From positions 91,059 through 155,058 of the forward strand of contig JASLZX010000001.1 in assembly GCA_030754655.1 (NCBI GenBank): a stretch of DNA of 64,000 nucleotides, read 5' to 3'. This stretch comes from Candidatus Poseidoniia archaeon. Lineage in GTDB: Archaea > Thermoplasmatota > Poseidoniia > MGIII > CG-Epi1. The position numbers and the translations under genes were made by a program. Each line of letters begins with the position of its first letter. The stretch's first letter is position 1. Positions 14,595 through 46,364 of the stretch are shown here, in pieces. The notes beneath the pieces were generated by a model. It saw only the letters and a program-made list of their open reading frames with translations, had not been told where the DNA came from and did no database searches.

Positions 14595-14646
14595 AAACGG
14601 GACCGGGGAGACCAGACAGACACCCCTTCGTTTCGCATGGAAATAA

Positions 14647-14653: not shown

Positions 14654-14659
14654 TATGCA

Positions 14660-27952: not shown

Positions 27953-28903
27953 ATGGACGTCACCCACCGTGCGGTCGCTTGGATGCTGCTCGCTAGCCTG
28001 GCGTTCGCCTCCGGCAGCGCGCTGGTGAAGTGGACCGCTGACCATGCGGGGGTCGCGACGGTGATTTTCGGCCGCAGTCTGGTCATCACGCTGGCACTAC
28101 TGGCGTGGTCCCGGCTGCGCGGCGCGTCGCTGCGGGTCGACGACCGCCGGCTGCTGCTCTGGCGCTGCACCGTCGGCCTCTCGGCGATGGCGTGCTATTT
28201 CTACGCGGTGCAGCAGATTCCGCTCTCGAACGCGGTGACGCTGCAATACACCGCGCCGCTCTTCGTCGCGCTATTCTCCGGGGCGATGCTGCGCGAGCGC
28301 GTCTCACCGCTGGTCTACGGTTGCATCGCGCTCTCGTTCGCCGGCACCGTGCTGATAGTATCCCCGTCGCTGCGAGGAGTCGAGCCGGGCGCGCTGGTCG
28401 CGCTCATCTCGGGCGTGCTCTCAGCGTTCGCCTATCTTGCCGTGCGCGGGCTGCGCACCAGCGCGTCGCCGGACGGGGTCGTTTTCTGGTTTGCGCTCTT
28501 CTGCACGCTCGTGACCCTGCCGCTGGCCGCCGCCAAATTACCGCAGCTGGCGCTGCCGGAAGCGCTCGCGATAATCGGCGTCGGCATCTGCGCTGGTGTC
28601 GGCCAGACGGGAATGACGCGCGCCTACCAAGCGGCCCGCGCAGCCTACATCGGCGCCTTCTCCTATGCGACGGTGCTCATCGGCGGGATTTACGGCTGCC
28701 AGCTCTTCCAGCAGTCGCTCGTCTGGGGCGACGCCATCGGCGCGGCGCTGATTGTCGGCAGTGGCGCGCTGCTCGTCAGCAGCGTGGGACAGGAGAAGCC
28801 GCAGGTCGCAGTTGCCGTAGGCGGGCGAGCCAGCTACGCGTCCCCGACCGTGACGAGCTGGTTGCCCATGCGCTCAGTGTCAAGCATATATTGTATGAAA
28901 TAG
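27953..28903 (+). CDS. EamA/DMT-superfamily transporter
   Basis: Ten predicted TM helices in a two-fold EamA repeat arrangement. 316 aa. Confidence 0.6.
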   Translation: MDVTHRAVAWMLLASLAFASGSALVKWTADHAGVATVIFGRSLVITLALLAWSRLRGASLRVDDRRLLLWRCTVGLSAMACYFYAVQQIPLSNAVTLQYTAPLFVALFSGAMLRERVSPLVYGCIALSFAGTVLIVSPSLRGVEPGALVALISGVLSAFAYLAVRGLRTSASPDGVVFWFALFCTLVTLPLAAAKLPQLALPEALAIIGVGICAGVGQTGMTRAYQAARAAYIGAFSYATVLIGGIYGCQLFQQSLVWGDAIGAALIVGSGALLVSSVGQEKPQVAVAVGGRASYASPTVTSWLPMRSVSSIYCMK

Positions 28904-29847
28904 CGCGCCCGCGCGCCTTGGTCGTCGGTCAGGACGCTGCGGTCGCCGTAGCGGCTCATCAGGTTCTCGAGTGACGGCGAGTGCTGCTCCGGGGTGCAGT
29001 CGGGGTACTCGCTCTCCTCCTGGCTTGGCTTCTCGCCCTGGTAGAGGTCGCTGGCGTCGCAGCCGATATCCTCTTCGCACCACTGGTAGCAGTCGTATGG
29101 CGTGCCGCAGACGAAGTCGCCAGTGCGGTAGCACTGCTCATTCGGGACCACCCAGTCGGCGGTCCAGGAACTCGCCCTCTCAAGGTCGGAGTCGGAGTCT
29201 GTGTATTCGTGGTACTGGTGGGTGTGGTAGAGCCCGGTGAAGTGGCCCAGCTCGTGCGACGGGATGTAGCTGGTCTCGAAGGTGGACGCCCGCACGAAGG
29301 TGGCGTAATAGGTCTGGTCATGCCAGGGATACATACTGTAGGCGCCCCAGCCGTCGGTTATCAGGACGATGTTCACGTTGCTGAAGTTGTAGTGTTGTTC
29401 GAACTCCGCGCCCAGCGCCGAGACCGGGACACCGTCGCCGAAGTCACCTCTCGCCCCGCCGCTGCTGTTCCCGACAGTCCCGGTCTCGCCTTCCTGCTCA
29501 TCCTCGACGTCAGGGAAAGCGCGGTCGACATTGATCATCTCCCCCAGCGCGAAGTTGATGCCGTGCGGGTTGAAGACGCTGTTAATCAGCTCGAGCCCCG
29601 CCAGGAGCGAGGTCTCGTTGGAAATGTAGCTGACGTTGTCGTTGTCCCGGTAAACGAAGAATGTAACCGCGAGTGTCTTCACCGGCCCGCCATCGCAGTC
29701 CAGTCCGGGATAGGGCGCAGTCTCCGAAACTTGGAGCCAGTACTGTTGTTCGTTGCACGGCTCATCCTCGTCGGGCTCGCCGTTCAGGCAGCCGGAGAGC
29801 GCCGTGGCGAGCAGGATTAGCGTGAGCAGTAGCGGGGCGCTGCGCAT
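28834..29847 (-). CDS. Secreted lipoprotein, metzincin zinc metalloprotease (M43/pappalysin-cytophagalysin-like)
   Basis: Signal peptide plus lipobox-like LSGC. HELGHFTGLYH matches the metzincin HExxHxxGxxH signature and resembles the M43 HEIGHWLGLYH. Cys-rich C-terminus. Confidence 0.6.
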   Translation of the reverse strand: MRSAPLLLTLILLATALSGCLNGEPDEDEPCNEQQYWLQVSETAPYPGLDCDGGPVKTLAVTFFVYRDNDNVSYISNETSLLAGLELINSVFNPHGINFALGEMINVDRAFPDVEDEQEGETGTVGNSSGGARGDFGDGVPVSALGAEFEQHYNFSNVNIVLITDGWGAYSMYPWHDQTYYATFVRASTFETSYIPSHELGHFTGLYHTHQYHEYTDSDSDLERASSWTADWVVPNEQCYRTGDFVCGTPYDCYQWCEEDIGCDASDLYQGEKPSQEESEYPDCTPEQHSPSLENLMSRYGDRSVLTDDQGARARYFIQYMLDTERMGNQLVTVGDA

Positions 29848-29892: not shown

Positions 29893-30654
29893 TCAGGCAA
29901 CGCGGGTAATCATCTCCGGAGTTATGCCGTGCTCAGTGACGGCGTAGATTAGCACAGCTGCCTTCTCCGGGTGGTTACGAATCTTCTTGATAATCATGCG
30001 ATTCTCGAACTCGGCAGCCATGCGCCCTACTTCGAGCTCGACAATGACGTCGGCGACAGCCTCAATCTGGCTCTGCGTCTTCGAATCGTGCGCGTCCTGC
30101 GAGACGGTGTAGAGCACGAGGCCGCCGTTAGCTTGCGCGTATTCCTTGATGGTCCGCATCGACGAGAGTACCTCAGCCAGCGAGTAATACTGCAGGAAGA
30201 AATCGAGCGAATCGACGACAACCCGGAAGGGCGAGCGCAGCTTCGAGATTTCGTACGCCATGTCTGAGACGAAGTTAATCTGGTCAGCAGTCGCACCGTA
30301 GGCGCCGACGTTGCGCAGCTCGCTTACCGAAAGCCCCTCCTGCTTGAAGCGGGAGGCCTGCAGGTCGCGCGCCAGAACCTTCTCGAAATACTGGGTGCCG
30401 ATGTTGACAATCCGCATGTCGGTAGGCCAGTTGTAGTGCTCGAAAGTCTCAACCAGCTCCTCGGAGGTTTCGTCGGTCGAGAAATAGACGACATTCTCGG
30501 CGCCGACACCCGCCGCAGCGTACTGCTTGGCGAGCAGCTCCTTGCCCGCCCCGGAGGTGCCCGCAATCAAGATTGAGCTCCCCATCTTGAATCCCTTGCC
30601 CTCTATCAACGCCGCGTCGAGGCGGGGGATGCCGCAGGTTACGATTTCAGCCAT
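29893..30654 (-). CDS. KaiC/RecA-like single-domain ATPase paralog with degenerate Walker A (GTSGAGKE)
   Basis: RecA-fold protein. The P-loop reads GTSGAGKE (Glu instead of Ser/Thr). Walker-B-like FRVVVDSLDF. The ATG overlaps the upstream gene end by 8 nt. Confidence 0.6.
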   Translation of the reverse strand: MAEIVTCGIPRLDAALIEGKGFKMGSSILIAGTSGAGKELLAKQYAAAGVGAENVVYFSTDETSEELVETFEHYNWPTDMRIVNIGTQYFEKVLARDLQASRFKQEGLSVSELRNVGAYGATADQINFVSDMAYEISKLRSPFRVVVDSLDFFLQYYSLAEVLSSMRTIKEYAQANGGLVLYTVSQDAHDSKTQSQIEAVADVIVELEVGRMAAEFENRMIIKKIRNHPEKAAVLIYAVTEHGITPEMITRVA

Positions 30655-31204
30655 CTGTGTTTTCGATGTAGCGGTCGGTCAGGGTCTTCAGCATTGAGGC
30701 CAGGTCGTCACTGGTCTGTTCCTCCACCGTAAGCATCATGGTATACGTCTTGCGGAGCCGCATGGTGTTGGCGAGGACGTTAATGAATTCTTTCAGGACC
30801 CGGCTCTCGGAATAGATGGTGAGGCCGTTAACCGAGTCAAACATTACGAAGTGCCGCTTGGCCTTGATGCGCCGCTCGAGCAACCCGATATTGAGCAGCA
30901 CCGACTCGAGCATTGTGGGCGACTCGATGAACATGGTACGTGGGTCCTCAGTCTCGCCACCAACAGTGAGCGAAATCATATCCACGAAATAGAGGTCGCC
31001 TAGGTCAGCCTTGATTTTCTCGAGGTCGGCGATGATGCTAGCTGAGGGCCGGGTCGTGGTAATGTATATGCCACCCAGCTTTTTGCTCAGCAGGTGCTTT
31101 ACGATTTCAGTCGACGTGGGGCGATAATTGTCAGAGTTGAGTGAAACCGTCGTCAGGGCGTCGCCCTCCTTGATGCTTGCGACCACTTGCTTGAGGACGT
31201 TCAT
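30647..31204 (-). CDS. KaiC/RecA-like domain protein lacking a P-loop (pseudo-ATPase)
   Basis: RecA-like topology with a Walker-B-like HFVMFDSVNGL but no GxxxxGK[ST]. Start at MNVLKQ. Its ATG overlaps the upstream stop (ATGA). Confidence 0.45.
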   Translation of the reverse strand: MNVLKQVVASIKEGDALTTVSLNSDNYRPTSTEIVKHLLSKKLGGIYITTTRPSASIIADLEKIKADLGDLYFVDMISLTVGGETEDPRTMFIESPTMLESVLLNIGLLERRIKAKRHFVMFDSVNGLTIYSESRVLKEFINVLANTMRLRKTYTMMLTVEEQTSDDLASMLKTLTDRYIENTDG

Positions 31205-32022
31205 GTGAATACCTGCCCCGTGTCCTGTCCCCACTTGAGCAACGGCACGATACTGAGCCCGATCGGCGTCAGCTCCACCAGCTGCCGTGAGCGCGAGTGC
31301 TTGGCACCCCGCATCTTGACCACTTGCAGCGTGCGTAGCAGGTCCCCCTGCCGCTGGACGTTCCCCATCAGGATAACTCCGTCAGCGACCGCTTCTTCAA
31401 CGCCGAAGATGGAGTAGGTCTGCGTACGCGCGTCGACGACAGTCTCAGAGATGAGCAGGGTGGTACAACCGAAGGTCGCCAAGAACTGTCCCAGCCGGAA
31501 AATGAAGTTACGGATGGCTCCCTTGTCGGGGAGCTGGTAGCAGATAGCGGTAATCGAGTCAATCACCAGTCGCGTAATCTGGAGTTCGTCGACGATATCC
31601 TCGAACGCCCCTAGCAGTGCCTCCATGTCCTTGGAGGTGTACGAGCCATCGAGCCGCTCGACTCCCAGTCGGTCGTTGATAATCCCGAGGTCGAAGACAT
31701 TCAGCTTCCCCTCGGTGACCAGCGAATCTTCGAAAAACCCGTAAGTTCGCAGGTTCTCCAGCATCTTGGAGGAGGGCTCGGTAACCGAGATGTAACAGGT
31801 GGTCTCGCCATTCTTGGCACCGTTAATCAGGTACTCCATTGCCAGCGTGGTCTTTCCCGAGCCGACGGTGCCTGCCAACAGAGTAGTGTTACCGATGGGG
31901 ATGCCGCCGTTGAGGATGCGGTCCAACCCATCAATGTGGGTCTTGGACTTCTCGCGCGGCCGGCCGCCGCGGGGGTCCAGCATCACCCTCTTCGGTTTTA
32001 CGTTTTCTTCCGCCACGTTCAT
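31201..32022 (-). CDS. KaiC-like ATPase (canonical Walker A/B)
   Basis: GIPIGNTTLLAGTVGSGKTTLA (Walker A) and TRLVIDSITA (Walker B). Start at MNVAEENVKPKRVMLDPRGG. The track ORF extends to 32157 from a GTG. Its ATG overlaps the upstream stop (ATGA). Confidence 0.65.
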   Translation of the reverse strand: MNVAEENVKPKRVMLDPRGGRPREKSKTHIDGLDRILNGGIPIGNTTLLAGTVGSGKTTLAMEYLINGAKNGETTCYISVTEPSSKMLENLRTYGFFEDSLVTEGKLNVFDLGIINDRLGVERLDGSYTSKDMEALLGAFEDIVDELQITRLVIDSITAICYQLPDKGAIRNFIFRLGQFLATFGCTTLLISETVVDARTQTYSIFGVEEAVADGVILMGNVQRQGDLLRTLQVVKMRGAKHSRSRQLVELTPIGLSIVPLLKWGQDTGQVFT

Positions 32023-32444
32023 TCCTCGATAATGTACTGGTCGATAAGGTACTGGCGGACCCGCTTTTTCAACGTTCTCTCGGTAATTCCTTCTTCCTGA
32101 GCAGTGTCGTGGACATTCTGTAGTTCTCGCTGCACTTCCACCGGGAGCTCGGCCCACTCAACCGGGGGCTTCTTCGGCAGCAGCCCGCGCAGGTCAACCG
32201 GGTTGGCATCAGCGAAGACGGAGGCGAAGCGCTCGCGCACGCGTTCCTCGAAGTATTTTTCCGCCTCCCGCTCGCACTCGTTATATGTCTTGACCAGCTG
32301 CTCTTCGATGACTGGCCCGAGGTCTTCCATGAAGACTCCCGTGGGCAGGAAAGGATGGTACCAGCTACCATCCTCGTGCAATACATCCAGATGCGTGCGG
32401 TTGTACGCGTCAATCAGCGGCGTCTCGTATTCTTCCTTTGCCAT
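32019..32444 (-). CDS. Hypothetical 141-aa protein, first gene of the KaiC-like operon
   Basis: MAKEEYETPLIDAYNRTHLDVLHEDGSWYHPFLPTGVFMEDLG… No family I recognise. A TATA-like catatatgg sits about 25 nt upstream (around 32465-32475 on the coding strand). Confidence 0.4.
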   Translation of the reverse strand: MAKEEYETPLIDAYNRTHLDVLHEDGSWYHPFLPTGVFMEDLGPVIEEQLVKTYNECEREAEKYFEERVRERFASVFADANPVDLRGLLPKKPPVEWAELPVEVQRELQNVHDTAQEEGITERTLKKRVRQYLIDQYIIEE

Positions 32445-32487
32445 GCCTCGTCCCGGAGCCCGTCGAGGACCGCGCCATATATGAGGA

Positions 32488-34620
32488 TTAGCCTCCGCCC
32501 AGCAGCGGCAATACGTAGTAGATGGCGAGTACAGTCCCCATTAGTGCCTCGCCCACAATCAGTCCGGTCGCAATCATGTAGGTATTGAGTAGCTTCAGCG
32601 TGCGCCCCTTCTCGCCGAGGCCGTCGCGCTCGACCGCTGGCTCTAGCACTTTCAGCTCCCACAGGTCACGCATTGCCCCGCCGACGACCATCGGCAGCGT
32701 CACCACCATCGGCAGGTACATTCCCAGCCCGAAGGCGGTCCCCATCCCGGTCAGCAGCTCCATGAATATGCCGATGCCGAAACCGAGCCCCAGCAGCTGC
32801 CACGGCGTCTCGCCACCGAGCATAATCTGCGCGAAAGCGGCGAATGCGTTCGCCTGCGGTGCGTAGAGCACCAGTTCGCCCTTCGCGAGCGCCAGCGAGA
32901 GGATGCCGGCAAACAGCGCCGAGACGATGGTGCCAGGGATGATGCCGACCAGTTCGGTCTTCATGATGTGCATCGGCCGGTTGCCGACGTAGAGCGCCGC
33001 CTTGTAGTCGCCAATCACGGTTCCCGACATCGAGATGGCGCCGCCGAAGACGGTCGTACCGACCAGCGAAAGCAGTGCCGCATCGCTCGCCGCGAGTCCC
33101 AGCAGGTTCTTGAAAATCAGCACCAGCATCAGCAGCACGATGAACGAAGTGCCCGATACGGGCTCGATGCTGGTCTCGCCCATCACCTTCACGGCAATCG
33201 CGCCAAGCGCGAAAGTCGTCAGGCAGAGCACCAGCGCAAAGACGAAGGAGGGGATGAAGCCAAACTCGGTCGCGAACACTAGCGTGATGCCGACCAGCGT
33301 CACCACCAGCATCACGGGAATATGCGTCACTGGCCACTCATACCAGCCTTTGCCCTCGACGTAGTCGCGCCGCGCGACATCGTCGCCTCCGGCAAAAATG
33401 GCGATAACGTCCGCCGCGGTGGTGCGGAAGACCGGGGCCATCTTCAGTAGCGCGGTGATGCCGCCGCCCAGGATGGCACCAATCGCCATCGGGCGCGCGA
33501 CGTAGGCATACGATTTCAGCGACGCCGCGGGGTAGGCAGAGACGGCGTGGTAGAGCCCGTCGACAGGGTAATAAAAAGGATAATCAAGGGCGAACGCCAT
33601 CGGCGTCACGACGAACCATGTGAAAAACGTCCCGAGGCTCACCAGCATTGCGACACGGAATTTCATGAACCAGCCGATGGCGCCCATCAGTGGAGTGAAC
33701 TCGAAGCCGAGCCAGGTGTAGTTGGTGATTCCTGAGTCGAACGGCACCATCAGGTCGCCGCCCTCATAGTAGCGTGAGACCCCCAGTTCGTGCGCTCCCT
33801 TGTCGAGCACCGAGGTGCGAATAGGGTCGCCTGCGACGTCAACCGCGCTGGTGGAGAAAACCGGGAAGTCGCGCAGGAAAGTGAAAATCCCGACCAGCAG
33901 GGTCGAGATTCCGACCAGCCAGATTGAGTGGCGTGCGCTCTCGACCGACCCGGTCGAGGTCTCGCGTGCGATGTCCATCAGCTTGACGTTGGCTTCGAAG
34001 CCCGGCAACGGCAACGGATCTTCGACTAGCCATACTCTCCGAAAGATGATGAAGTAGAGCACGCCCAGCATCCCGCCCAGGATTGAAGCCACCAGCGCCA
34101 CCCCCGCCAGCACCCACGATTCGGGCAGCAGTAGCGAGGCGTCGACGAGATGGCTGCCGTCCGCCATGCGGTATTTCGAGGAGTAGGCGAGCAGATAGAT
34201 GGCGGGATACGTAAACACGAAACCAGTGCAGACCATTGAGGCACCGGTCGAGGCGGAGGCGGAGAGGTTCACTTCGCCCGGGGTCCAGCGTAGCGCCATC
34301 GCCGCAAGGTAGGCGACGTACCACGAGCCGGAGACGATCATCCCGACCTTGAGCCCGACGTACTGGTTGATGACCGCGAACAGGATGCCGATGACCAGCC
34401 CCAGCATAATCTGGTCCCACTTCCAAGTCGTCGAACCGAAGCCGTCGGTGCGCGACTTCTCCTCGAGATATTCCTCCAGCACCTCGGTGTTGAAGTTGGA
34501 GTACATCTCGGGGTCGAAGTAATCGAGCGTCCCCTCTTCGATAGCGCGCAGCCCTTCGGGGGTCGGCGGCTGCCGATACGGTGACGTCCTTACTTTTGCC
34601 ATGCGGGAACGACTCTGCAC
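32488..34620 (-). CDS. OPT-family oligopeptide transporter
   Basis: 710 aa with 16 or more TM helices and OPT-like conserved blocks (…GLKVGMIVSGSW…, …NLLGLAASDAALLSL…). Confidence 0.75.
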   Translation of the reverse strand: MQSRSRMAKVRTSPYRQPPTPEGLRAIEEGTLDYFDPEMYSNFNTEVLEEYLEEKSRTDGFGSTTWKWDQIMLGLVIGILFAVINQYVGLKVGMIVSGSWYVAYLAAMALRWTPGEVNLSASASTGASMVCTGFVFTYPAIYLLAYSSKYRMADGSHLVDASLLLPESWVLAGVALVASILGGMLGVLYFIIFRRVWLVEDPLPLPGFEANVKLMDIARETSTGSVESARHSIWLVGISTLLVGIFTFLRDFPVFSTSAVDVAGDPIRTSVLDKGAHELGVSRYYEGGDLMVPFDSGITNYTWLGFEFTPLMGAIGWFMKFRVAMLVSLGTFFTWFVVTPMAFALDYPFYYPVDGLYHAVSAYPAASLKSYAYVARPMAIGAILGGGITALLKMAPVFRTTAADVIAIFAGGDDVARRDYVEGKGWYEWPVTHIPVMLVVTLVGITLVFATEFGFIPSFVFALVLCLTTFALGAIAVKVMGETSIEPVSGTSFIVLLMLVLIFKNLLGLAASDAALLSLVGTTVFGGAISMSGTVIGDYKAALYVGNRPMHIMKTELVGIIPGTIVSALFAGILSLALAKGELVLYAPQANAFAAFAQIMLGGETPWQLLGLGFGIGIFMELLTGMGTAFGLGMYLPMVVTLPMVVGGAMRDLWELKVLEPAVERDGLGEKGRTLKLLNTYMIATGLIVGEALMGTVLAIYYVLPLLGGG

Positions 34621-37807: not shown

Positions 37808-40044
37808 TCCTCGTCCTCTGTATCGCCTTCGGGTTTGTTGGCGGGCGGTTGATCCTGCGCGCCTTCGGGCATGAATGCATCGAGTACGGTCGCGGTGGTC
37901 TTCGAAATCACCTGCCCTGTTCCCTCAACGGCGCGGAAAACGCCGAGGGTCGCCGCGCCTGCCAGGTCGGCTGCGGCGCCGACCGGAGCGCCGATGATAC
38001 CCTCACGGTGGAGCCCCAGCACCTCCTGGAATTCGTCCAGGCTCAGCTCGTCCCAGTGGCGGAAGGTGTACCAGAGGGTGACGATAATCAGCGCCACCAC
38101 CAGCGCAATCAACAGTCCGTAGGTCCCCATCTGCCCGGCGAGGCCGAGGCCGAATACAATTGAGGCGGAGATGATGAATGACCCGAGGACGCCACCAATC
38201 GCCACGGCCGAGAGGATGCGGTGGGGGGACATCGACATCGAGCGGCCGAGCAGCGTGCCGCCGACCGAGCCGGAGCCCTGAAACGGAAACATCACGAAGA
38301 GCATGATGCCGGCGAACGCCAGCCGCTCAATCCACGGCTGCACGGTCATGATTTCGTGGCCCTTGGCCTGCACTCGTCGGATGGCGCCACCGACGAACGG
38401 AATTTTGCGCGCAAGGTCGAAGTTCCACGCCAGAAAGACGCCGACCATGATGTCGACGAAGGCGGTTGCCAGCGCTAGCACCCAGGGGTTGATTCCGGCC
38501 GCAATCCCGAGCGGGATGACGGTCCCCTTGCCGAGTGGTGGGACGAAATAGAGCAGCATCAGCTGCGAAACCAGCAGGAAGTCGCGTGTGGGGATGGCGA
38601 GGAACAGCAGCAGGAATCCACCCACGGTGGCGAGTATTGGCATGCTGAAGCGCGTCACCGTCAGGATTACCGCGGGGCCGCCGACAGCGTAAACCAGCAG
38701 CATCGCGCCCGCCAGCACGAAAGTGTTGAAGCCGACCGACCACCAGAAAGTGGGCTGCACCACCTTGGGCTCGACCACTAACAGCTCGCGGCTAAGGTTG
38801 ACCGGCTGCTCGCCGAAGGGAGTCGTGAAGCCAGCCCCCGTTACATTGCCGGCAATCCAGGTCGAGTTGGCGACCGACCCGGCACCGCCACCTTCAGCGA
38901 TGACCGTGACGTCCATGTAGATTGAGGCGCCGACCGGCAGCCGCTGCTCCAGGTTTCCCGCCGCGCGAACCGTGGCGCCGCGGAGGACCATGTAGGTGTA
39001 GCCGAGGTCTTCCCCGTCGGCGACGTTGGTAACCGGGGTGTTGTGCAGCGTAAAGTTGATGACGCGCGTCTGCTGGAACAGCACCACATCCAGCTGCGAC
39101 CGCTGGAAGCTGCCGTTGGTCAGCTGCGCGTGGTCGAACTTGATTCCGCGCAGGTTGCTCTGTAGCGCGCTGGTGCCTTCCCAGACCGTGCTGCGCACCA
39201 CCATCCGGTCGACGGTGGCGTGTTCCAGCCGCGTCTCCTCGAGGACCGAGTTCTGCAACAGGACCTCGGAGAGCATGACGTGCGTGAGCACCGAGCCGCG
39301 AATCGTAACATTGTGGAAGGCAACACGCTCGAAGTCGCAGTTGATGAAGAAGCCATATTCGAAGACGACGTTCTCGAAGACGACATCCTCGAAGCCCACC
39401 TCGTTGAACAGGAAACCGTTGATGGAGAGGTTGCTGAAGTATTGCTGCCGCACCAGTCGCGCACTCGAGTAATTAGCCGCCGCATTCGACGACTGCCCGA
39501 AGAGCGACTCTAGCGACCCGTTCGCCAGCAACGTGCCGTCGGCCGCTTGCGGCGCCGGGACCAGCTGTGGCCAGCCCGATTCCTCGAGCGGGGCGTAATA
39601 TTCGATAGACTCGATGTTGCCCTGCAGCAGGAAAGTGTCGCCGGGTGCGAAGTCGGGATAGTCGCCGTCGGTGGTGTAGCGCGCCAGATTGCCATGGTCG
39701 ACCGCAGCCACATACCAGTAGCCGCTGCGATCCTGCCCGAGCGCCGCCTGTGGCCAGCCTGCGAGGCTGACGCCGAGCAGGATTAGCAGCACCCCCAGCG
39801 CCAGCAGCGGCCGCGAGGCGGCGCGGACGCGCGTGACGAAGATTCGCATGGCGTCGATGACGAAGTCGATTTCGTCCTTCTCGCGCCGGCTGACTTTGAC
39901 CAGCACCTCTTCCTGCCGGGCGCGCCACGCAATCGGCCTCTCGCCCAGCTCGTGACCCGGCAGCGGCGCCTGCGCCTCGGGGTCGACCGGGGCGGGCGAT
40001 TCGGTTTCCGGCGGCTGCTCCTCGCTGGACATCCGCCCCCGCAC
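37804..40044 (-). CDS. Pentapeptide-repeat domain fused to a C-terminal multi-pass membrane domain
   Basis: One N-terminal TM, then about 200 aa of pentapeptide-like repeats (…FLFNEVGFEDVVFENVVFEYGFFINCDFERVAFHNVTIRGSVLTHVMLSEVLLQNSVLEETRLEHATV…) with many N-x-S/T sequons. Then about 300 aa with 8 or more TM helices and an acidic C-terminal tail. Confidence 0.55.
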   Translation of the reverse strand: MRGRMSSEEQPPETESPAPVDPEAQAPLPGHELGERPIAWRARQEEVLVKVSRREKDEIDFVIDAMRIFVTRVRAASRPLLALGVLLILLGVSLAGWPQAALGQDRSGYWYVAAVDHGNLARYTTDGDYPDFAPGDTFLLQGNIESIEYYAPLEESGWPQLVPAPQAADGTLLANGSLESLFGQSSNAAANYSSARLVRQQYFSNLSINGFLFNEVGFEDVVFENVVFEYGFFINCDFERVAFHNVTIRGSVLTHVMLSEVLLQNSVLEETRLEHATVDRMVVRSTVWEGTSALQSNLRGIKFDHAQLTNGSFQRSQLDVVLFQQTRVINFTLHNTPVTNVADGEDLGYTYMVLRGATVRAAGNLEQRLPVGASIYMDVTVIAEGGGAGSVANSTWIAGNVTGAGFTTPFGEQPVNLSRELLVVEPKVVQPTFWWSVGFNTFVLAGAMLLVYAVGGPAVILTVTRFSMPILATVGGFLLLFLAIPTRDFLLVSQLMLLYFVPPLGKGTVIPLGIAAGINPWVLALATAFVDIMVGVFLAWNFDLARKIPFVGGAIRRVQAKGHEIMTVQPWIERLAFAGIMLFVMFPFQGSGSVGGTLLGRSMSMSPHRILSAVAIGGVLGSFIISASIVFGLGLAGQMGTYGLLIALVVALIIVTLWYTFRHWDELSLDEFQEVLGLHREGIIGAPVGAAADLAGAATLGVFRAVEGTGQVISKTTATVLDAFMPEGAQDQPPANKPEGDTEDEE

Positions 40045-40070
40045 CCCTTCTGAGCGTTTAATCCTTGCCT

Positions 40071-40277
40071 TCAGCCACCCGACGCCACCAGCACCACGCG
40101 TACGCCCCCTTTCGGGAGCGGTGAATTGAGCGCGACCGGCCGCAGCGGCTCCCCCTCGGCGAGCACCAGCACGCCGTCCGGGTGCAGCTCCAGCGCCGCG
40201 ACCAGCTCGCCCGCGGTCGCCCCCTCCGGGAGCTCGACCTTGCGCTCTTCGCCGCCGACGGTCACGCGCCGCTTCAT
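40071..40277 (-). CDS. MoaD/ThiS-like small ubiquitin-fold protein with C-terminal Gly-Gly (SAMP-like)
   Basis: 68 aa ending …VVLVASGG. Beta-grasp pattern with a Gly-rich C-terminus. 27 nt upstream of the pentapeptide-repeat membrane gene on the same strand. Confidence 0.55.
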   Translation of the reverse strand: MKRRVTVGGEERKVELPEGATAGELVAALELHPDGVLVLAEGEPLRPVALNSPLPKGGVRVVLVASGG

Positions 40278-40379
40278 GCGCAGCCAGCGGTGGACGGGAT
40301 TAACGGTTGGCGGCGGCAGCCAATTGCTGCCGCCGCCCCGACTTAATGCTTATCATCCCGCCACAATGGCGCCTGCGCG

Positions 40380-40462
40380 CCAGGATCGCCTAGTCCGGTA
40401 GGGCGGTGGTCTCGAAAACCACTGGGGTCTCCCCACGGGGGTTCGAATCCCTCTCCTGGCGC
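40380..40462 (+). tRNA. tRNA-Ser (anticodon CGA), class II long variable arm; CCA encoded (40463-40465)
   Basis: Acceptor GCCAGGA/TCCTGGC. Anticodon stem GTGGT/ACCAC with loop CTCGAAA. Variable arm TGGGGTCTCCCCAC. T-arm GGGGG-TTCGAAT-CCCTC. A TATA-like cttaatgcttatcat lies upstream. Confidence 0.8.
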
Positions 40463-40599
40463 CATTTCTCTCTCTGACGAGAGCGCTGCGGAGAAACGTT
40501 GCGATTTCGAGACATAATACCCCAAAGACCGGGGTGTCATAAGGTGGTAGTCGGGCCTGCCGGCGTTCATTCAATCCTATTCTGATGGCTTATATCCGC

Positions 40600-41529
40600 C
40601 TATTTCCCCAGAATCTCCTTCTTCATCTGCCTGAACTCGGCGTCGTCAATGATTCCATCATCAAGAAGGGCCTTTACATCACGCAATTCTTCAGATTTGG
40701 ACTTGCCGCCTGAGCCGATGCTGGATTTGCTCACTACGCTGTCCTTGATTTCGGTCTTGGTAACTTCGTCGCCGTGTACTACCTTCTGGGAGACCTTGAT
40801 AGTGCCCATCTCGGCCTTCTTGCGCCGAGCAGCGGCAGCCTCTTCCAGCATACTGTGGGACGTGTACCACTCATTTGCGTCGTCGTACAGCTCCAGCCGC
40901 TCGTACTCTGCACCAACTGCTGCAGGTGGCACTTTCTCGAGGAGAGGTGCTATGTAACTTCTACCTCTCTTGAGTTCCTTGATTAGCAAGGAAATTGCGG
41001 GTTCGCCAATCTCCGCCAGCGCCTCCGCGGCGTAGTAGCCAGTATCATCGTGACTAAGCACCTTACCGAGCGGTTCCACAGCCCGCACATCGCCAATCAT
41101 TCCCAGCACCTTCGCAGCACCTTGGCGGGCCGCTCGGTTTTTATCCTCGAGTAATTTAATGTGTGGTTGGACCACCCGCGCGTCACCTGTATTACTCAGG
41201 GTGTTCATAGCTTTGAGCGCTTCCACGGCTGCCTCGCGGTCAAGGCCATTACCGTCCTCGAGCACTTCGATAAGTGACTCTATCGCCGGTTCACCAATTC
41301 TTCCCAGTGCAAACGCAGCATTCAAACGAACATCGAAAGCAACATCCCTAAGCGCCTTAATGAGCGGTTTCACAGCTCGCACGTCGCCAATCTTCCCCAG
41401 CGCCTCCGCAGCGGCTTCCCGGACGCGCAAGTTGCCGTCCTCGAAGACACTATTCCTTTTCCCGCCTGAATTTTCTCTCCCAGAAACTAACATTGCAAGT
41501 GAGGCTACTGCACGCACGTCGCCTAGCAT
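40600..41529 (-). CDS. HEAT/PBS-lyase-type repeat protein with C-terminal SHOCT-like domain
   Basis: Repeated …AAEALGKIGDVRAVKPLIKAL… units (HEAT_PBS type). The C-terminus SEELRDVKALLDDGIIDDAEFRQMKKEILGK resembles SHOCT. Confidence 0.55.
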   Translation of the reverse strand: MLGDVRAVASLAMLVSGRENSGGKRNSVFEDGNLRVREAAAEALGKIGDVRAVKPLIKALRDVAFDVRLNAAFALGRIGEPAIESLIEVLEDGNGLDREAAVEALKAMNTLSNTGDARVVQPHIKLLEDKNRAARQGAAKVLGMIGDVRAVEPLGKVLSHDDTGYYAAEALAEIGEPAISLLIKELKRGRSYIAPLLEKVPPAAVGAEYERLELYDDANEWYTSHSMLEEAAAARRKKAEMGTIKVSQKVVHGDEVTKTEIKDSVVSKSSIGSGGKSKSEELRDVKALLDDGIIDDAEFRQMKKEILGK

Positions 41530-41810
41530 AGCAAGTGCTCTCGCTGCATCAATGCGGATGTAGGCTTGCTCACTTTCAAGAGCATCAAATCAAATTCCTC
41601 TGCCATCTCGAACTGGGAATCCAAATCCACAGACCAAGTGTCATTATTCAGATTATACGTTTTATCTCCGGCATGCTCATAATATGAGAAAAGGTCCCGG
41701 AAATGACTGTTACTGTAAACGGTCATTGAAAGAACAAGAACTACAGTGAATACAACGAATATCCGGTGCTTGTCAATCTCCTGCATGCCAGCTCTTGATT
41801 TGACGACCAA
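41523..41810 (-). CDS. Hypothetical small membrane protein in a low-GC islet
   Basis: 95 aa with one TM (IFVVFTVVLVLSMTVY). The local GC is well below the genomic level. Confidence 0.3.
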   Translation of the reverse strand: MVVKSRAGMQEIDKHRIFVVFTVVLVLSMTVYSNSHFRDLFSYYEHAGDKTYNLNNDTWSVDLDSQFEMAEEFDLMLLKVSKPTSALMQREHLLC

Positions 41811-41813
41811 TAT

Positions 41814-43670
41814 TTAAACTGCTTCGCGCACCTTGACCGCCAGTCCCTGCTGGCCCAGGGCAATCTCGACAGGCGCCACTTTCAGTTTACCCACCGCGAC
41901 CAGCTCATCGCTTTCAGTAACGATCAGGCACTCATCCTGGCAGCGCAGGTCCGGGTCGCATTCCAGCACGAACTTGCAGAAGGTATTACGTCCCTGCCGG
42001 TTGAACTCGGCCGAGTCCGCGTGGACCACTACGCGTTGTTGCGGTGCTGCACAGGCAGCGTGGATTACGCATGCACCAGCCGTCCGGAGCGTGAAAAGCC
42101 CGTATCGTGCACTAAGCGACAGGCGATGTTCACCATCAACCAGTACATTGCGCAAGCGTCCGGTATTGCGACTGGTAACCAGCTCAACCTCGCCTCCCAG
42201 TAGTGCGTCAGCCGCGGAGCCGCCGAACTGAAAGGTGGCGATGGCGTGCACCCGCTCGGGGGTCCAGCTGCGCTGCCGCACGTTGCCGGGCGGCCGTAGT
42301 GGCGCGGTATCCGCCAGTGGTTCGGGGACGGTGCCGAAGAGGGGATGCTCGAAGCTCGCACCGCCGGTCGCCGTGCGGGTTAGCCTGCCGCGCGCAAATC
42401 GCAGGAGCGGCTCGCGATTCGCGATCGGCTGCCGCGGCCGGAAGGCGGGCTCCCACTGCTCGAGCCAGTCTCCGTGCGACTCCAGCGCCGCGAGTGCGTC
42501 GCCCACCTCAGGCCGCCCGGCGGCGCGTGCGACGACCAGCTCCCACAGCAGTCCGTCGCGAATCGCCTCGCGCACGCGTCGCAGCTCGGCGAAGCTCACG
42601 AGCAGGTTGTGGCGCGCGAGCTGGCGCTCCCGTTCTTCCGCCGGGAGCGCCTTGAGCTCGTCAGCGCTCGTCGTGGAGCAGGTTGCGCAGCCGCACGGCA
42701 GCTCCTCCATCTCCGCCAGCCGCCGCGTGCCCCAGCTGAACATCATGCGGCCGTCGACGGCGAACTTGGCGTAGCTGGCGCTGTCGAACAGGTCGCAGCC
42801 GAGCAGCGCCGCGAGCGCGAAGAGCGACGGATGGCCGCAGCCGAACAGGTGCACCGGCCGCGCCGTCACCAGCGCGCGCTTCGCGGCGAGCACCAGCGTC
42901 GCCAGCTCGGCGTAGCGGTATTGCTCCATCAGCGGCACGACGCCGCCGATGGGGTGCATGTCGGCGTCGACGGTGGAAACCTGCGCCGCCGCGCGCTCGC
43001 GGAGCGCCGGATGGCTGCCGCCCTGCACCGTCGCGGCGAGCAGCATCTCACCCTTGAGTGGGACGGCCGCCGTGATGCGTGCTTGCGTTTCCGCCAGCTC
43101 CGCCTCGGCGCGGTCAGCGTCAAACTCCGGTTCGGTGAAGACGTCGAGCACGGTGCCGATGTCGCTGCCGATGTCGCGCTGGAACTCGACGATGGCCTGC
43201 GGCTCGACCTCGATGTCGCCGTAGACGTGCGACTGGAAGGTGCCGCTGTCGGTCATCAGCGGGCCGTCCCACCCGACCAGCGCGTGGACGCCGTCCGCCA
43301 GCGCGCGTTCGCGCAGCTCGTCGTGGCGCGAAATAATGTAGGAGTTGGTAATCAACCCGGTCGCTCCGCAGTCGCGGATTTCGGCCGGCGCCAGCGTCAG
43401 CTTGCGCGGATTGACCACCGGCAGCAGCGTCGGCGTTTCGAGCGCGCCGTGGGGGGTCGCAAGGCGGCCGATGCGCGCCAGCCCGTCGCGTTGCCGGATT
43501 TCGAACACGGCGCGGCAGCGCTGCCGGGGGATTATACCTTGCTCATTCTTCGCCCGGCGTGAGGACGTCGGCGGCGGCGCCGAGGATTGAGGCGACGATA
43601 CGGGAGGTTTGCTGGGGCTGGAATTGCGGGTGGTCATGCTGGCGGGCGTGGCACTGGTGGGCTGGACCAT
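41814..43670 (-). CDS. tgtA: Archaeosine tRNA-guanine transglycosylase (ArcTGT) with C-terminal PUA-containing region
   Basis: TGT catalytic core and a Zn site (…CGCATCSTTS…). 619 aa from Met52 (MVQPTSATPAS…). The track ORF (to 43823) would overlap tRNA-Ala, so a downstream start is required. The 50-aa S/P-rich N-terminal tail is unusual. Confidence 0.8.
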   Translation of the reverse strand: MVQPTSATPASMTTRNSSPSKPPVSSPQSSAPPPTSSRRAKNEQGIIPRQRCRAVFEIRQRDGLARIGRLATPHGALETPTLLPVVNPRKLTLAPAEIRDCGATGLITNSYIISRHDELRERALADGVHALVGWDGPLMTDSGTFQSHVYGDIEVEPQAIVEFQRDIGSDIGTVLDVFTEPEFDADRAEAELAETQARITAAVPLKGEMLLAATVQGGSHPALRERAAAQVSTVDADMHPIGGVVPLMEQYRYAELATLVLAAKRALVTARPVHLFGCGHPSLFALAALLGCDLFDSASYAKFAVDGRMMFSWGTRRLAEMEELPCGCATCSTTSADELKALPAEERERQLARHNLLVSFAELRRVREAIRDGLLWELVVARAAGRPEVGDALAALESHGDWLEQWEPAFRPRQPIANREPLLRFARGRLTRTATGGASFEHPLFGTVPEPLADTAPLRPPGNVRQRSWTPERVHAIATFQFGGSAADALLGGEVELVTSRNTGRLRNVLVDGEHRLSLSARYGLFTLRTAGACVIHAACAAPQQRVVVHADSAEFNRQGRNTFCKFVLECDPDLRCQDECLIVTESDELVAVGKLKVAPVEIALGQQGLAVKVREAV

Positions 43671-43835: not shown

Positions 43836-44582
43836 ATGGAATTCTCGTCATCCCAGGTTGAATCGACGCTGCTGAAGGCGGGTGCGTTGCTCGCCATAAT
43901 GCTCACCACGGGCTGGATGGCGCGCCGCGGCGTGCGGGTCAACTACACGCGCAAGCTGAACCACGTCGCGATTTTCTTCCTGCCGGTGGCGATTGACCGG
44001 CAGCTGAACGTCGCGACCTTCGCCGACATAGAATACCTGCTAACCAGCTCCGCCATCGTGACGCTCTCGCTGCTGTTTTTCTGGGAGCCGATCCGCAGCC
44101 GCTTCCCGCCTTACCAGCTGATGTTCGAAGCCTTCGACCGGCCCGAGGACCGGCCATACACGCTGGTCTGGATTTTCAGCCAGTTCGTCGCCGGCTTCAT
44201 GGTCATGCTGCCTGCCATCTGGTATTTCGGCGAAATTGGCCTCGCGGGGCTGATCCTCATCCCGCTGCTCATTAACGCCGTCGGCGACGGCCTCGCGGAG
44301 CCGATTGGCGTGCGCTGGGGTCGGCACGAATACCGCACGCGTGCGCTCGGCACCGACCGCACCTACGTGCGGACGCTCGAAGGCAGCGGCTTCATCCTGC
44401 TGACGGGGCTCGTGATTATCGCGCTGCACGCGTCGCAATTCAGCGGGCTACAGCTCGCGCTCGCGCTCGCCATCGTCCCGCTGGCGATGACCCTCGCCGA
44501 GGCGTTCTCACCGCACACCTGGGACACGCCGTTCCTGATGGCAGCTGGGTATGGCGGGTTGCTGCTGGTGATGCAGTTCTAG
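43836..44582 (+). CDS. Polytopic membrane protein, CTP-transferase-1/polyprenol (dolichol/phytol) kinase-like family candidate
   Basis: Seven or eight TM helices. Motif NAVGDGLAEPIGVRWGRHEY resembles the GDxxAExxG signature of the CdsA/dolichol-kinase superfamily. Start at MEFSSSQ (43836). The track ORF overlaps tRNA-Ala. Confidence 0.4.
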   Translation: MEFSSSQVESTLLKAGALLAIMLTTGWMARRGVRVNYTRKLNHVAIFFLPVAIDRQLNVATFADIEYLLTSSAIVTLSLLFFWEPIRSRFPPYQLMFEAFDRPEDRPYTLVWIFSQFVAGFMVMLPAIWYFGEIGLAGLILIPLLINAVGDGLAEPIGVRWGRHEYRTRALGTDRTYVRTLEGSGFILLTGLVIIALHASQFSGLQLALALAIVPLAMTLAEAFSPHTWDTPFLMAAGYGGLLLVMQF

Positions 44583-44665
44583 CAGGATTCAGATGTATCT
44601 AAAACTAGAGACGAGATTTTTTGTGAACAGTATTTCTCGAGGATGACCCCCTCCGAGGACTTGTC

Positions 44666-45541
44666 TTATTCTTCTGTTTCTTCGTCGGAGTCTTCTCGCT
44701 CCTCATTATCTTCTTCGTCACGGTCTTTATCGTCCCTGTCGTCTCTTTCGCGGTCGCATCCCTGAATCAACGCTTCTAATTCTTCACAGGCTTCTCCGAG
44801 TTCAGCCATCCTGGCTCTGATCTCTTCCCATACCTCATTGTCATGAGCCTTTCCGTTTTCTTTGTCACGACCTTCTTTATCTCTTCCAAATCTTTCTTTC
44901 CACTCTTCCATGGTCAGACAGGCTTCATCATCACCGCGTTCTTCACGCTCTTCGTCAGACCAGTTTTCTCGGTCCCAGTGTTTATCATCCCTTGACCAGT
45001 TCTTTTTATCTTCGTCAGACCAGTTTTCTCGGTTCCAGTCCGTATCATCTCTTCCCCAGTCTTTTCTATCATCGAATAACTTTCTTTCGAACTCTCTAAG
45101 TGTGAAACATGGTTCTTCTCTATCTTCATCATAACTGTATATTGCTTTCCACTGTTCTGCAGTCAAACAATCTTCATCTTCTTGTGAAACATCTCTGTCG
45201 GGCGTCTCACCCTCGACTCTTTTTTCATTTCCTTCACGATCTTCACTCGATTCTTTTCGGTCGACGTCTTCCCTATCCCAGTCTTTCTCGGACTTTTCTC
45301 TCCATTCCTCAATAGTCAGACAATCCTCATCAGACAACCCGTCACGTTCTTTTTTGTCAACTGAAGTGGAGGCCTCCTTGTTCAAGGCATCGTCGCTTCT
45401 ATCGAAAGTTGTCACTAAACCCTCTCTCAAATCACCAATGGTCGTACCGTCACCAAGAATCTGTGTGTCCTCGTTAGCTATAACCAGTGGCGATGCCGTG
45501 AGCAGCATGATAGCCATTACGAGAGCCTTACCTTCTAACAC
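44666..45541 (-). CDS. Secreted, extremely acidic W/D/E/R-repeat protein
   Basis: Signal peptide MLEGKALVMAIMLLTASPLVIA. Three copies of [DA]CLT[IAM]E[EQ]W, repeats DWDRENWSDED/HWDRENWSDEE and a poly-D/E C-terminus. Low-GC gene. Confidence 0.5.
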   Translation of the reverse strand: MLEGKALVMAIMLLTASPLVIANEDTQILGDGTTIGDLREGLVTTFDRSDDALNKEASTSVDKKERDGLSDEDCLTIEEWREKSEKDWDREDVDRKESSEDREGNEKRVEGETPDRDVSQEDEDCLTAEQWKAIYSYDEDREEPCFTLREFERKLFDDRKDWGRDDTDWNRENWSDEDKKNWSRDDKHWDRENWSDEEREERGDDEACLTMEEWKERFGRDKEGRDKENGKAHDNEVWEEIRARMAELGEACEELEALIQGCDRERDDRDDKDRDEEDNEEREDSDEETEE

Positions 45542-45605
45542 GGGCTTCGAGTTGTTATAGAGATATATAAAACGTCGCCAAAAAATTTTTTTGTTTTGTG
45601 CTTGG

Positions 45606-45689
45606 CGCGAGGAGGGGGATTTGAACCCCCGTGGGACAAGCCCATCGGATTAGCAATCCGACGCAATGGCCAGGCTATGCGATCCTCGC
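45606..45689 (-). tRNA. tRNA-Ser (anticodon GCT), class II; CCA encoded (45603-45605)
   Basis: Reverse complement: acceptor GCGAGGA/TCCTCGC, anticodon stem TCGGA/TCCGA with loop TTGCTAA, long variable arm TGGGCTTGTCCCAC, T-arm GGGGG-TTCAAAT-CCCCC. Confidence 0.8.
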
Positions 45690-45803
45690 GCAACGTTCGC
45701 GACACTGCCCCGGTTAAAGAGCCTGCGGCGGCGTTTCCCCCTCGCTGTCCGAGCCGCTCGCCGACCACGGGCAGCGGCTAAAACCGGCCGCTGCTGCGGG
45801 GGC

Positions 45804-46364
45804 ATGGAGCTGGGGCTAGTGACCTCCAACGTGGGCAAGCTGCGCGAGCTGGCGGCGGCGCTGGAGCCGGCGGGTCACACGGTCGCGCAGCGCGCGCTGG
45901 AGTATCCTGAGGTTCAGGCGGCGAGCCTCAAGGCGGTGGTCGAGTTCGGGCTCGAGTGGCTGGCGCAGCGCCATGCGGGCGAGGCGCTGCTCATCGACGA
46001 CGCGGGGCTTTTCGTCGACGCGCTGGGCGGCTTCCCCGGCGTCTACAGCCGCTACGCGTACGACACCATTGGCCCGGCCGGCGTGCTGGCGCTGCTCGGC
46101 GATGAGGGGGCGCGCAGCGCCGAGTTCCGCTGCGTGCTCGGTTTGCTGTTGCCCGACGGCGGTCGCCAGCAGTTCCGCGGCAGCTGCCGCGGCCGCATCA
46201 CCCGCGCACCGCGCGGCGACGGCGGGTTCGGCTACGACCCAGTCTTCGTCCCCGCAGGCGACGAACGGACTTTCGCCGAGCTGCCGCTGGCGGAGAAGAA
46301 TGCGGTCAGCCATCGCGGACGGGCGTTGGCGACGTTGGCCGTGTATCTCGGCGACAGCGGCTAG
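45804..46364 (+). CDS. Non-canonical purine NTP pyrophosphatase (RdgB/Ham1, ITPase)
   Basis: MELGLVTSNVGKLRE… with …GFGYDPVF… and SHRGRA Ham1 motifs. The track ORF 45666.. is an extension over the tRNA. Confidence 0.8.
   Translation: MELGLVTSNVGKLRELAAALEPAGHTVAQRALEYPEVQAASLKAVVEFGLEWLAQRHAGEALLIDDAGLFVDALGGFPGVYSRYAYDTIGPAGVLALLGDEGARSAEFRCVLGLLLPDGGRQQFRGSCRGRITRAPRGDGGFGYDPVFVPAGDERTFAELPLAEKNAVSHRGRALATLAVYLGDSG

Follow-up and report, generated by a model that had tools for sequence, protein, structure and literature searches.

A candidate KaiC-like regulatory ATPase cassette conserved in Marine Group III archaea

What is the function of an operon that encodes a KaiC-type ATPase, two differently altered relatives of it and a small protein outside the curated families? 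The operon was found in a Marine Group III (MGIII) euryarchaeon (Poseidoniia), in a 64,000-nucleotide stretch of genomic DNA that was analysed as a whole and is referred to here as the window. Two-component and Ser/Thr-kinase systems are scarce in archaea. Makarova, Galperin and Koonin reportedly proposed in 2017 that archaeal KaiC-like ATPases act as a "signal transduction hub"; to our knowledge, only ArlH, CirA and GvpD among these ATPases have experimental backing. The comparisons described below suggest that the cassette probably encodes a regulatory ATPase complex whose general kind is known but whose composition is new.

Operon structure and conservation

The features of the locus are as follows.

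g0: 32019-32444, minus strand, protein of 141 aa
g1: 31201-32022, minus strand, 273 aa, single-domain KaiC-type ATPase
g2: 30647-31204, minus strand, 185 aa, putative truncated KaiC/RecA-fold paralog
g3: 29893-30654, minus strand, 253 aa, KaiC/DUF7504 paralog
Promoter region: 32468..32492, minus strand, BRE/TATA-like motif GCTAATCCTCATATATGG

The initial annotation described a compact four-gene operon behind its own promoter, and the ORF coordinates, the junctions and a conserved TATA box all agree with this description. The g0/g1 and g1/g2 junctions are both ATGA, an overlap of 4 nt each, and the g2/g3 junction is ATGGCTGA, an overlap of 8 nt. An alternative g1 start, a GTG 6 nt further downstream, would abolish the g0/g1 overlap. 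The overlaps had been taken to imply stoichiometric co-translation, which was an over-reading: across orthologs the g1/g2 overlap alone is preserved, its ATGA being near-universal among the related loci, while the other junctions vary from -8 to +6 nt. Stop and start codons that overlap point to coupled translation but do not bear on stoichiometry.

The TATA core, CATATAT, lies at 32477-32483, roughly 36 nt ahead of the g0 ATG and some 10 nt further upstream than the position of about 32470 given previously. The promoter region takes in the stop codon of the gene upstream, which encodes an OPT oligopeptide transporter, and its motif occurs only once within the window. The motif GCTAA-n-TC-T/A-TATA precedes g0 in all of the 40-odd related loci, whatever the upstream gene, taking the form GGCTAAnnnTCTTATAAGGCC in AT-rich relatives, and its distance to the g0 ATG is unchanged across these loci. 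Scanning the window for Rfam families and tRNA genes gave no match inside or close to the operon. We also considered the OPT gene as a possible fifth member and rejected it, on the grounds that g0 has its own conserved promoter and that OPT is missing from two divergent loci, L039 and L040, which retain the cassette.

The related loci number 43, comprising 39 species-level MAG loci and four metagenome loci. Gene-neighbourhood conservation had been put forward as a check on the locus, and the order g0-g1-g2-g3 is indeed retained in every related locus long enough to show it. The taxon guessed at that stage was near the mark, MGIII being placed within the class Poseidoniia. In L040, where g0 is 49% identical, the four genes are still together and both flanks are different, with sulfate assimilation genes and Fic upstream and a pilin downstream. 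The cassette is found in bathypelagic (CG-Bathy1 and CG-Bathy2) as well as epipelagic lineages. Values of dN/dS are 0.02-0.25 across all four genes, indicating purifying selection. On the sequences compared, the operon is confined to MGIII archaea, and the conservation of gene order within so narrow a lineage could be partly inherited synteny.

The four proteins

The description of g1, g2 and g3 as three paralogs of the KaiC/RecA fold was borne out, in that g1, g3 and, marginally, g2 score above the Pfam KaiC threshold. Judged by its sequence, g1 is a complete single-domain KaiC, closest to the KaiC CI domain. It matches Pfam KaiC (PF06745) at 181.8 bits (1.8e-53; gathering threshold 26.6 bits), and its best likeness in the PDB is the KaiC CI domain (2.3e-57, with the motifs aligned), while PH0186 and PH0284 of Pyrococcus match at 1e-31 to 1e-33. 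Canonical Walker A and B motifs had been noted in g1, and alignment to KaiC located all of the catalytic motifs: Walker A (GTVGSGKTT, residues 51-59, of which GTVGSGKT is encoded by nt 31849-31872), the catalytic Glu (in T81-E82), the Walker B Asp (in LVIDS, residues 152-156) and the Lys/Arg finger (KMRG), which together make up the nucleotide site. GTVGSGKT is unchanged in 39 g1 orthologs, and the C-terminal tail PLLKWGQD is also conserved. The public annotation of g1 is "circadian clock protein KaiC". We note that one public record names a g1 ortholog "GvpD".

The g3 protein matches Pfam KaiC at 83.6 bits (1.7e-23) and Pfam DUF7504 (PF24336) at 46.7 bits (6.4e-12; threshold 27 bits), in the latter case over profile positions 1-179 of 179, and it is publicly annotated as "RAD55 family ATPase". 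Comparison of g3 with g1 using hhalign (95% probability, E = 2e-8) identifies the two as paralogs. Its Walker A motif is GTSGAGKE (residues 32-39, nt 30538-30561), in which the Thr is replaced by an invariant Glu: GxxGxGKE is present in 34 of 35 g3 orthologs, the exception being L040, which has GSPGSGIE. Alignment to KaiC shows that g3 keeps the Walker A Lys, the acidic residues D61-E62, the Walker B Asp (in VVVDS) and a Lys/Arg finger (KIRN). Two of the paralogs, g2 and g3, had been called catalytically degenerate. The P-loop, catalytic Glu and Arg finger are lacking in g2; for g3 the description is unproven, because the change from Thr to Glu in Walker A is the single deviation, and g3 may be a fully active ATPase.

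At the sequence level, the homology of g2 to KaiC is marginal. The Pfam KaiC match is 27.8 bits (2e-6) against the 26.6-bit cut-off, DUF7504 gives 15.2 bits against a gathering threshold of 27 bits, and neither hhalign of g2 against g1 and against g3 nor a search of PDB sequences with the g2 profile gave a significant result. Assignment of g2 to the KaiC/RecA fold is based on marginal Pfam and NCBIfam matches together with a structure model, whose confidence is moderate and whose best structural match is PH0284. There is no GxxxxGK[ST] in g2, the place of the P-loop being occupied by NSDNYRP; the catalytic Glu is missing (TTRP is found instead), as is the Arg-finger hairpin, leaving the Walker-B-like strand FVMFDS as the sole remaining element of the nucleotide site. 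Although g2 is the fastest-evolving of the four genes, it is still under purifying selection. The possibility that it is a decaying pseudogene was rejected, since the ORF is intact in all loci, 67 columns are invariant in 36 sequences, and dN/dS is no higher than 0.25.

The g0 protein is acidic (pI 4.7) and predicted to be all-helical, with a nearly invariant N-terminus (MAKEEYETPLIDxYNRTH) and C-terminal helix (TLKKRVRQYL). The statement that it matches no family is correct for curated libraries, since there is no family for it in Pfam or NCBIfam; it does not hold more widely, because relatives of g0 form a broader, uncharacterised Thermoplasmatota family. A search of the PDB gave no match, and the fold has no informative match. 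Its distant relatives (25-35% identity) occur in other Thermoplasmatota genomes, beside PolD, TBP, TFB or KEOPS genes, and some of them bear Lys-rich tails or are Lys-rich repeat forms; in these genomes they were never seen beside KaiC genes. A word-indexed search with a divergent g0-family alignment recovered only a 209-aa Thermoplasmata form. Matches of the family to Pfam were sub-threshold noise; the only hint of potential relevance, Ish1 (HeH-type; 18.7 bits, cut-off 26.6), is one that we do not count. The g0 domain is itself acidic, which gives no grounds for assuming that the MGIII form binds nucleic acids.

A proposed mechanism and its alternatives

We put at about even the chance that the cassette is an MGIII-specific, KaiC-like regulatory ATPase module that is hetero-oligomeric, in which g1 is the motor, g2 and g3 modulate it and g0 serves as adaptor or output. 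The four genes would be expressed as one transcript, with a predicted start near 32453, from their own conserved promoter. The competent subunit would be g1, a single domain of the KaiC CI type that would hydrolyse ATP at subunit interfaces. We infer that g2 and g3 join g1 in a mixed RecA-type ring or oligomer, in which only some of the interfaces would be active, most plausibly those where the g1 site is completed by the g3 finger, and in which g2 and g3 would be structural or allosteric modulators. The g0 protein, whose invariant N-terminal peptide is probably disordered, would then link the nucleotide state of the ring to a target, as adaptor or output. The target would most likely lie in transcription or in DNA or RNA handling, because the relatives of g0, some of which have Lys-rich tails, adjoin genes for TBP, TFB, PolD and KEOPS.

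A more specific version of this module makes the ring of g1, g2 and g3 an obligate hetero-hexamer of pseudo-symmetric build, with one competent ATP site per trimer; g0 would dock on it via the N-terminal peptide and relay its state to the transcription or replication machinery. We regard this version as unlikely. If true, it would provide a prokaryotic counterpart, built from KaiC-type subunits, of the Elp456 and Rad51-paralog rings, and archaea of MGIII would possess a kind of regulatory switch of their own that has so far gone unrecognised.

The alternative that survives best is that the four proteins are co-regulated and otherwise independent, each KaiC-like protein forming its own homo-oligomer with a separate role and g0 being an unrelated housekeeping protein that heads the transcript. 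PH0284 and ArlH form homo-oligomers, and the literature describes many stand-alone KaiC paralogs in archaeal genomes. Moreover, since g0 relatives elsewhere occur without KaiC neighbours, g0 could be a housekeeping gene with no link to the ATPases beyond a common promoter. However, g2 is maintained by purifying selection despite having no working nucleotide site, none of the loci examined has it without g1 and g3, the ATGA overlap between g1 and g2 hardly varies, and the cassette has moved as a unit in L040. We therefore consider independent action unlikely; if it were the case, the cassette would be an ordinary lineage-specific paralog cluster.

A second alternative is a mediator of recombination or DNA repair, in which the trio would resemble the RadA/Rad51 paralog complexes (Rad55-Rad57, BCDX2 and the Sulfolobus RadA paralogs) and g0 would be a DNA-side accessory. 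Between signalling and recombination mediation, the sequences lean towards KaiC and away from RadA/Rad55. Matches to NCBIfam RadB (27.5 bits against a cut-off of 172.4) and RadA (23.4 against 259) align the P-loop region alone. The affinity of the cassette is with KaiC and not with RadA/RadB; unlike the paralog complexes, among them Sulfolobus SSO2452, its proteins have no DNA-binding N-terminal domain, and there are no repair genes nearby. A role of this kind is distinctly unlikely.

Quite improbable, too, is that the module regulates peptide or solute uptake by sensing the energy or nutrient state and controlling the adjacent OPT transporter or, in some genomes, an SSF symporter. In its favour, OPT is directly upstream of g0 on the same strand, with a gap of 43 nt in the window, and most related loci have the same arrangement; where OPT and g0 are separated, the insert is another transporter, the SSF symporter. 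Against it are the promoter of g0 and the two loci without OPT, already described, and the adjacency of OPT, seen across a single order-level lineage, may be a matter of inherited synteny. We note that this alternative concerns the target, and hence is compatible with the regulatory ATPase module.

Finally, a KaiC-based timer, either circadian clock or hourglass, is very improbable: g1 is strikingly like the KaiC CI domain and carries the automatic annotation of a clock protein, but it is a single domain of 273 aa as opposed to a CI-CII tandem of about 500 aa, it falls far below the cut-offs of the NCBIfam equivalogs PRK09302 and TIGR02655 (159 bits against 408, and 122 against 546), the positions of KaiC S431/T432 are E-E in g1 and E-A in g3, the flanks contain no KaiB or KaiA gene, and the cassette occurs in bathypelagic as well as epipelagic lineages.

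Relationship to known systems

The literature searched contains nothing specific on MGIII KaiC, on operons of inactivated KaiC paralogs or on archaeal hetero-hexameric KaiC, and neither the trio nor its link to the g0 family is described there, which upholds the first impression that no characterised system has this composition. The cassette does not belong with circadian clocks, ArlH, RadA/RadB or GvpD. With respect to cyanobacterial KaiC of the KaiABC oscillator, the whole CI domain aligns with g1, and Walker A, the catalytic Glu, Walker B and the Lys/Arg finger are conserved. The matches of g2 and g3 to FlaH/ArlH in NCBIfam are weak, and the ArlH scores are 37.4 bits for g1 and 51.7 bits for g3, where the cut-off is 215; genes for arlI, arlJ and archaellins are absent from the flanks in the window and from the related loci. 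Pfam GvpD_P-loop gives 16 and 15 bits (cut-off 24), and no gvp genes were seen near the cassette. PADLOC identified no defence system, giving only weak partial mad8 matches in the P-loop region of g1 (24 bits) and g3 (17 bits) and no match to g0 or g2. Elp456 of eukaryotic Elongator is a 2:2:2 hetero-hexameric ring of three RecA-fold paralogs, and its likeness to the proposed ring is one of analogy only, as the matches are below threshold; no linkage of Elp3 to the cassette was seen.

The cassette is a compact natural case of an intact KaiC-type ATPase always accompanied by two paralogs, each altered in its own way, and by a small partner, and its conservation extends across an ocean lineage that is abundant but uncultured. 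Should the proteins form one complex, it would demonstrate the use of pseudo-ATPase subunits in a prokaryotic KaiC-type ring, and would offer a first way into the function of the g0 family, which is spread through the Thermoplasmatota beside core transcription and replication genes.

The nearest parallels are among the archaeal single-domain KaiC-like ATPases. ArlH (FlaH) and Haloferax CirA are single-domain KaiC-like regulators that act through protein-protein contacts (PMC10983859). The cassette differs from these ATPases in being a trio of one complete subunit, one truncated subunit with no P-loop and one with a GKE Walker A, and none of g1, g2 and g3 carries a fused input or output domain. 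KaiC-like ATPases together with inactivated homologs have been proposed as archaeal signalling hubs (Makarova et al. 2017, as cited in PMC5847659 and PMC10983859), and the combination of an active ATPase, inactivated paralogs and a small non-ATPase partner is a scheme that the cassette fits.

Organization and conservation of the cassette

Reading of the ORFs in the window identified four consecutive genes on the minus strand at 29893–32444, referred to here as g0 to g3 or, collectively, the cassette. An oligopeptide transporter gene (OPT) is located directly upstream on the same strand.

Genes of the cassette and the adjacent transporter (window coordinates)
32488–34620, minus strand: OPT, ending 43 nt before g0
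32019–32444, minus strand: g0, 141 aa
31201–32022, minus strand: g1, 273 aa from the ATG overlapping the stop codon of g0
30647–31204, minus strand: g2, 185 aa
29893–30654, minus strand: g3, 253 aa

As proposed in the initial annotation, the g0/g1, g1/g2 and g2/g3 junctions overlap by 4, 4 and 8 nt (gaggaATGAacg, cacATGAacg and cagATGGCTGAaat, respectively); an alternative GTG start for g1 is found 6 nt downstream. The promoter element suggested there is also present, not at about 32470 but as a TATA-like box, CATATAT, at 32477–32483; it follows immediately on the stop codon of the upstream 710-aa gene and lies some 36 nt upstream of the g0 ATG. The box reads GCTAATCCTCATATATGG in the window and GGCTAAnnnTCTTATAAGGCC in AT-rich genomes, and its distance to the g0 ATG is constant in all loci. 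Between box and ATG (32445–32476, minus strand) the window carries an inverted repeat, CCTCG-n13-CGAGG, where AT-rich relatives have a conserved CAGTTTGAAAG element; these may represent an operator or leader structure.

Scanning species-representative genomes yielded 39 cassette loci, almost all labelled as MGIII, Poseidoniia or Thermoplasmatota MAGs. In these and in four metagenome loci, the order g0-g1-g2-g3 is retained wherever the contig is long enough. Nearly all related loci share the ATGA overlap of g1 and g2; spacing at the other junctions varies between −8 and +6 nt. Compared with the window, identity is 73–88% for g1, 63–87% for g3, 49–81% for g0 and 35–70% for g2, whose closest homolog (97%) comes from Marine Group III euryarchaeote CG-Bathy2. 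Against close relatives, dN/dS is 0.02–0.25 and highest in g2. Since identity and low dN/dS persist although third-position GC varies across the loci from about 0.77 down to about 0.25, all four are real, constrained genes. One locus titled “Candidatus Neomarinimicrobiota bacterium” (L030, PCCQ01000039.1) carries the archaeal OPT-g0-g1-g2-g3 block at 75–83% amino-acid identity, and its title probably reflects faulty binning or labelling of the public MAG.

OPT lies upstream of the cassette in most loci. OPT and g0 are separated by approximately 2 kb in about a dozen MGIII loci, with the g0 promoter box preserved; the one such gap with gene calls (L001, 3850–5947) contains an SSF sodium:solute symporter gene. 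The divergent loci L039 and L040 lack OPT, and in L040 the neighbours of the cassette are sulfate-assimilation and Fic genes to one side and a pilin gene to the other. The conserved unit is therefore the four genes.

On the other side of the cassette, 45 nt downstream of g3 and with its own TTTATC box, the window encodes a 337-aa protein (28834–29847, minus strand), found only in the closest relatives (L005, L007 and L010). It has a signal peptide with a terminal lipobox-like LSGC, a HELGH zinc-peptidase motif and a weak match to Reprolysin_5, and probably is a metallopeptidase that is secreted or lipid-anchored; beside OPT this would fit a peptide-scavenging lifestyle. Elsewhere in the window, GC drops to 0.54–0.57, from about 0.64 in the background, in four islands (14001–16000, 40001–42000, 44001–46000 and 62001–64000), and two of these are near tRNA genes (40379 and 45603).

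The three KaiC-type paralogs

The motifs listed in the initial annotation, namely GTVGSGKTT and LVIDS in g1, GTSGAGKE in g3 and the lack of a P-loop in g2, all hold. g1 belongs to the Pfam KaiC family (1.8e-53), and a profile built from its orthologs hits the CI domain in solved structures of KaiC (2e-57). Its Walker A, Walker B, GVEE segment and K-x-R finger (KMRG) align with KaiC CI and are conserved, T81-E82 is aligned with KaiC E77-E78, and the C-terminal tail PLLKWGQD is invariant. Public annotations of the cassette proteins are generic (“circadian clock protein KaiC”, “RAD55 family ATPase”).

g3 scores 1.7e-23 against KaiC and 6.4e-12 against DUF7504, and on the hhalign comparison (95%, E 2e-8) is identified as a paralog of g1. 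In the alignment to KaiC, its Walker A Lys, an acidic pair (D61-E62, opposite E77-E78 of KaiC), its Walker B Asp and a K-x-R finger (KIRN) are all retained; the single deviation is a Glu where Walker A has Ser/Thr, present in 35/35 orthologs examined. Only the most divergent ortholog (L040, 7562–8323; GSPGSGIE) has lost the Lys, while retaining the Glu, a hint that g3 can do without ATP hydrolysis in that lineage at least. The protein had been called catalytically degenerate: its Walker A is indeed non-canonical, but with one deviation and the Lys lost only in L040, “catalytically dead” is not justified.

Among these proteins, g2 has the weakest sequence-level assignment to the KaiC/RecA fold. 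Its KaiC score is 27.8 bits against a cut-off of 26.6, NCBIfam FlaH gives 3.6e-6, and about half of its orthologs have a precomputed PF06745 match; hhalign against g1 and g3 and sequence searches of the PDB gave nothing significant. The AlphaFold2 model (pLDDT 64.6, moderate confidence) has an alternating β/α core. NSDNYRP replaces the P-loop, TTRP occupies the catalytic Glu position, and the C-terminal hairpin carrying the Arg finger is missing; the Walker-B-like strand FVMFDS is invariant.

g0 and its wider family

g0 is acidic (pI 4.7) and has no match in Pfam or NCBIfam. Its model has four helices (pLDDT 75) and a disordered yet invariant N-terminal peptide, and a structural search gave no neighbour. 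An exhaustive profile search returned 33 cluster representatives; those other than the MGIII orthologs were sorted into three groups. One member of the family is labelled “Thermoplasmata archaeon”.

Forms and genomic contexts of g0-family proteins outside MGIII
Long forms, 310–505 aa: g0-like N-terminal domain, about 30–35% identity over 135 residues
Forms of about 200 aa: additional C-terminal domain
Stand-alone forms: 142–143 aa
L044, L047–L049: always between HypD and PolD large subunit
L045, L046: 1 nt after TBP
L050: near TFB and an HhH protein
L051: after PAC2, near eIF2-alpha and Cgi121
L054–L056: upstream of Pcc1, Translin and a Bud32-like kinase

In the long forms, the N-terminal domain is followed by one to four extra g0 C-terminal modules (YLPQKPxP...KKTIRKQIRKYL), spaced by Lys/Ala/Pro-rich linkers, with an overall pI of about 9.7. 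The fetched flanks of these loci contain no KaiC-like gene. From these contexts we conclude that g0 represents in MGIII a broader, uncharacterised family which accompanies information-processing genes, and which is joined to KaiC paralogs nowhere else.

The proteins at L044 (8001–9503), L047 (6001–7266), L048 and L049 are 420–505 aa long and come from other Thermoplasmatota, probably MGII-like; they have histone-H1-like linkers, several C-terminal modules and the same basic pI, and may be uncharacterised chromatin- or replication-associated proteins. The 1-nt spacing of the 207-aa form (L045, 8001–8624; L046, 4283–4906) points to its being co-translated with TBP in the lineage concerned; in the window, the TBP gene (57229–57780, plus strand) has no g0-family neighbour. 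The 209-aa form (L054 and L056, both 5001–5630) has an extra C-terminal domain, EDFEEFxxxFGYAKRTFSKK...KKW, in a KEOPS-type neighbourhood.

A proposed mixed-oligomer model and known systems

RecA/KaiC-type ATPases bind ATP between subunits, one providing the P-loop and Walker B and its neighbour the Lys/Arg finger. The defects of the three paralogs complement one another: g1 is complete, g3 combines a finger with an altered P-loop, and g2 has neither. Given these defects, and given that g2 is constrained and never alone in the loci examined, the most economical reading is a mixed oligomer of g1, g2 and g3, in which g1 would be the motor, g3 a finger donor that perhaps also binds nucleotide, and g2 a structural spacer. 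The invariant N-terminal peptide of g0 and the invariant tail of g1 make g0 a plausible docking partner, and the genomic context of the g0 family points to an output that would be linked to transcription or to DNA/RNA. We infer this model throughout, and hold it as a whole with moderate confidence. That the proteins are independent and merely co-transcribed is unlikely, and a recombination mediator of the RadA-paralog type is quite improbable. We also give little weight to a regulator of the neighbouring transporter, a role compatible with the mixed oligomer: the proximity of OPT looks like synteny within the lineage, or at most marks a candidate target. A KaiC timer is very unlikely, as g1 has a single domain, the S431/T432 positions carry E-E in g1 and E-A in g3, no KaiB gene lies in the flanks, and the cassette also occurs in bathypelagic lineages.

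By Pfam criteria the module falls within the KaiC family. When compared with circadian KaiC, ArlH, RadA/RadB and GvpD it qualified as none of these; PADLOC matched the four genes to no defence system, and our literature searches turned up no account of a module so composed. Archaea are known to have KaiC-like ATPases with inactivated homologs, a class that is mostly uncharacterised (Makarova et al., 2017, as cited in PMC5847659 and PMC10983859). The existence of such a cassette would not surprise a specialist, and its function is inferential; well conserved and cleanly organised, it offers a workable system for testing pseudo-ATPase subunits of KaiC-type assemblies, and an entry point to the g0 family.
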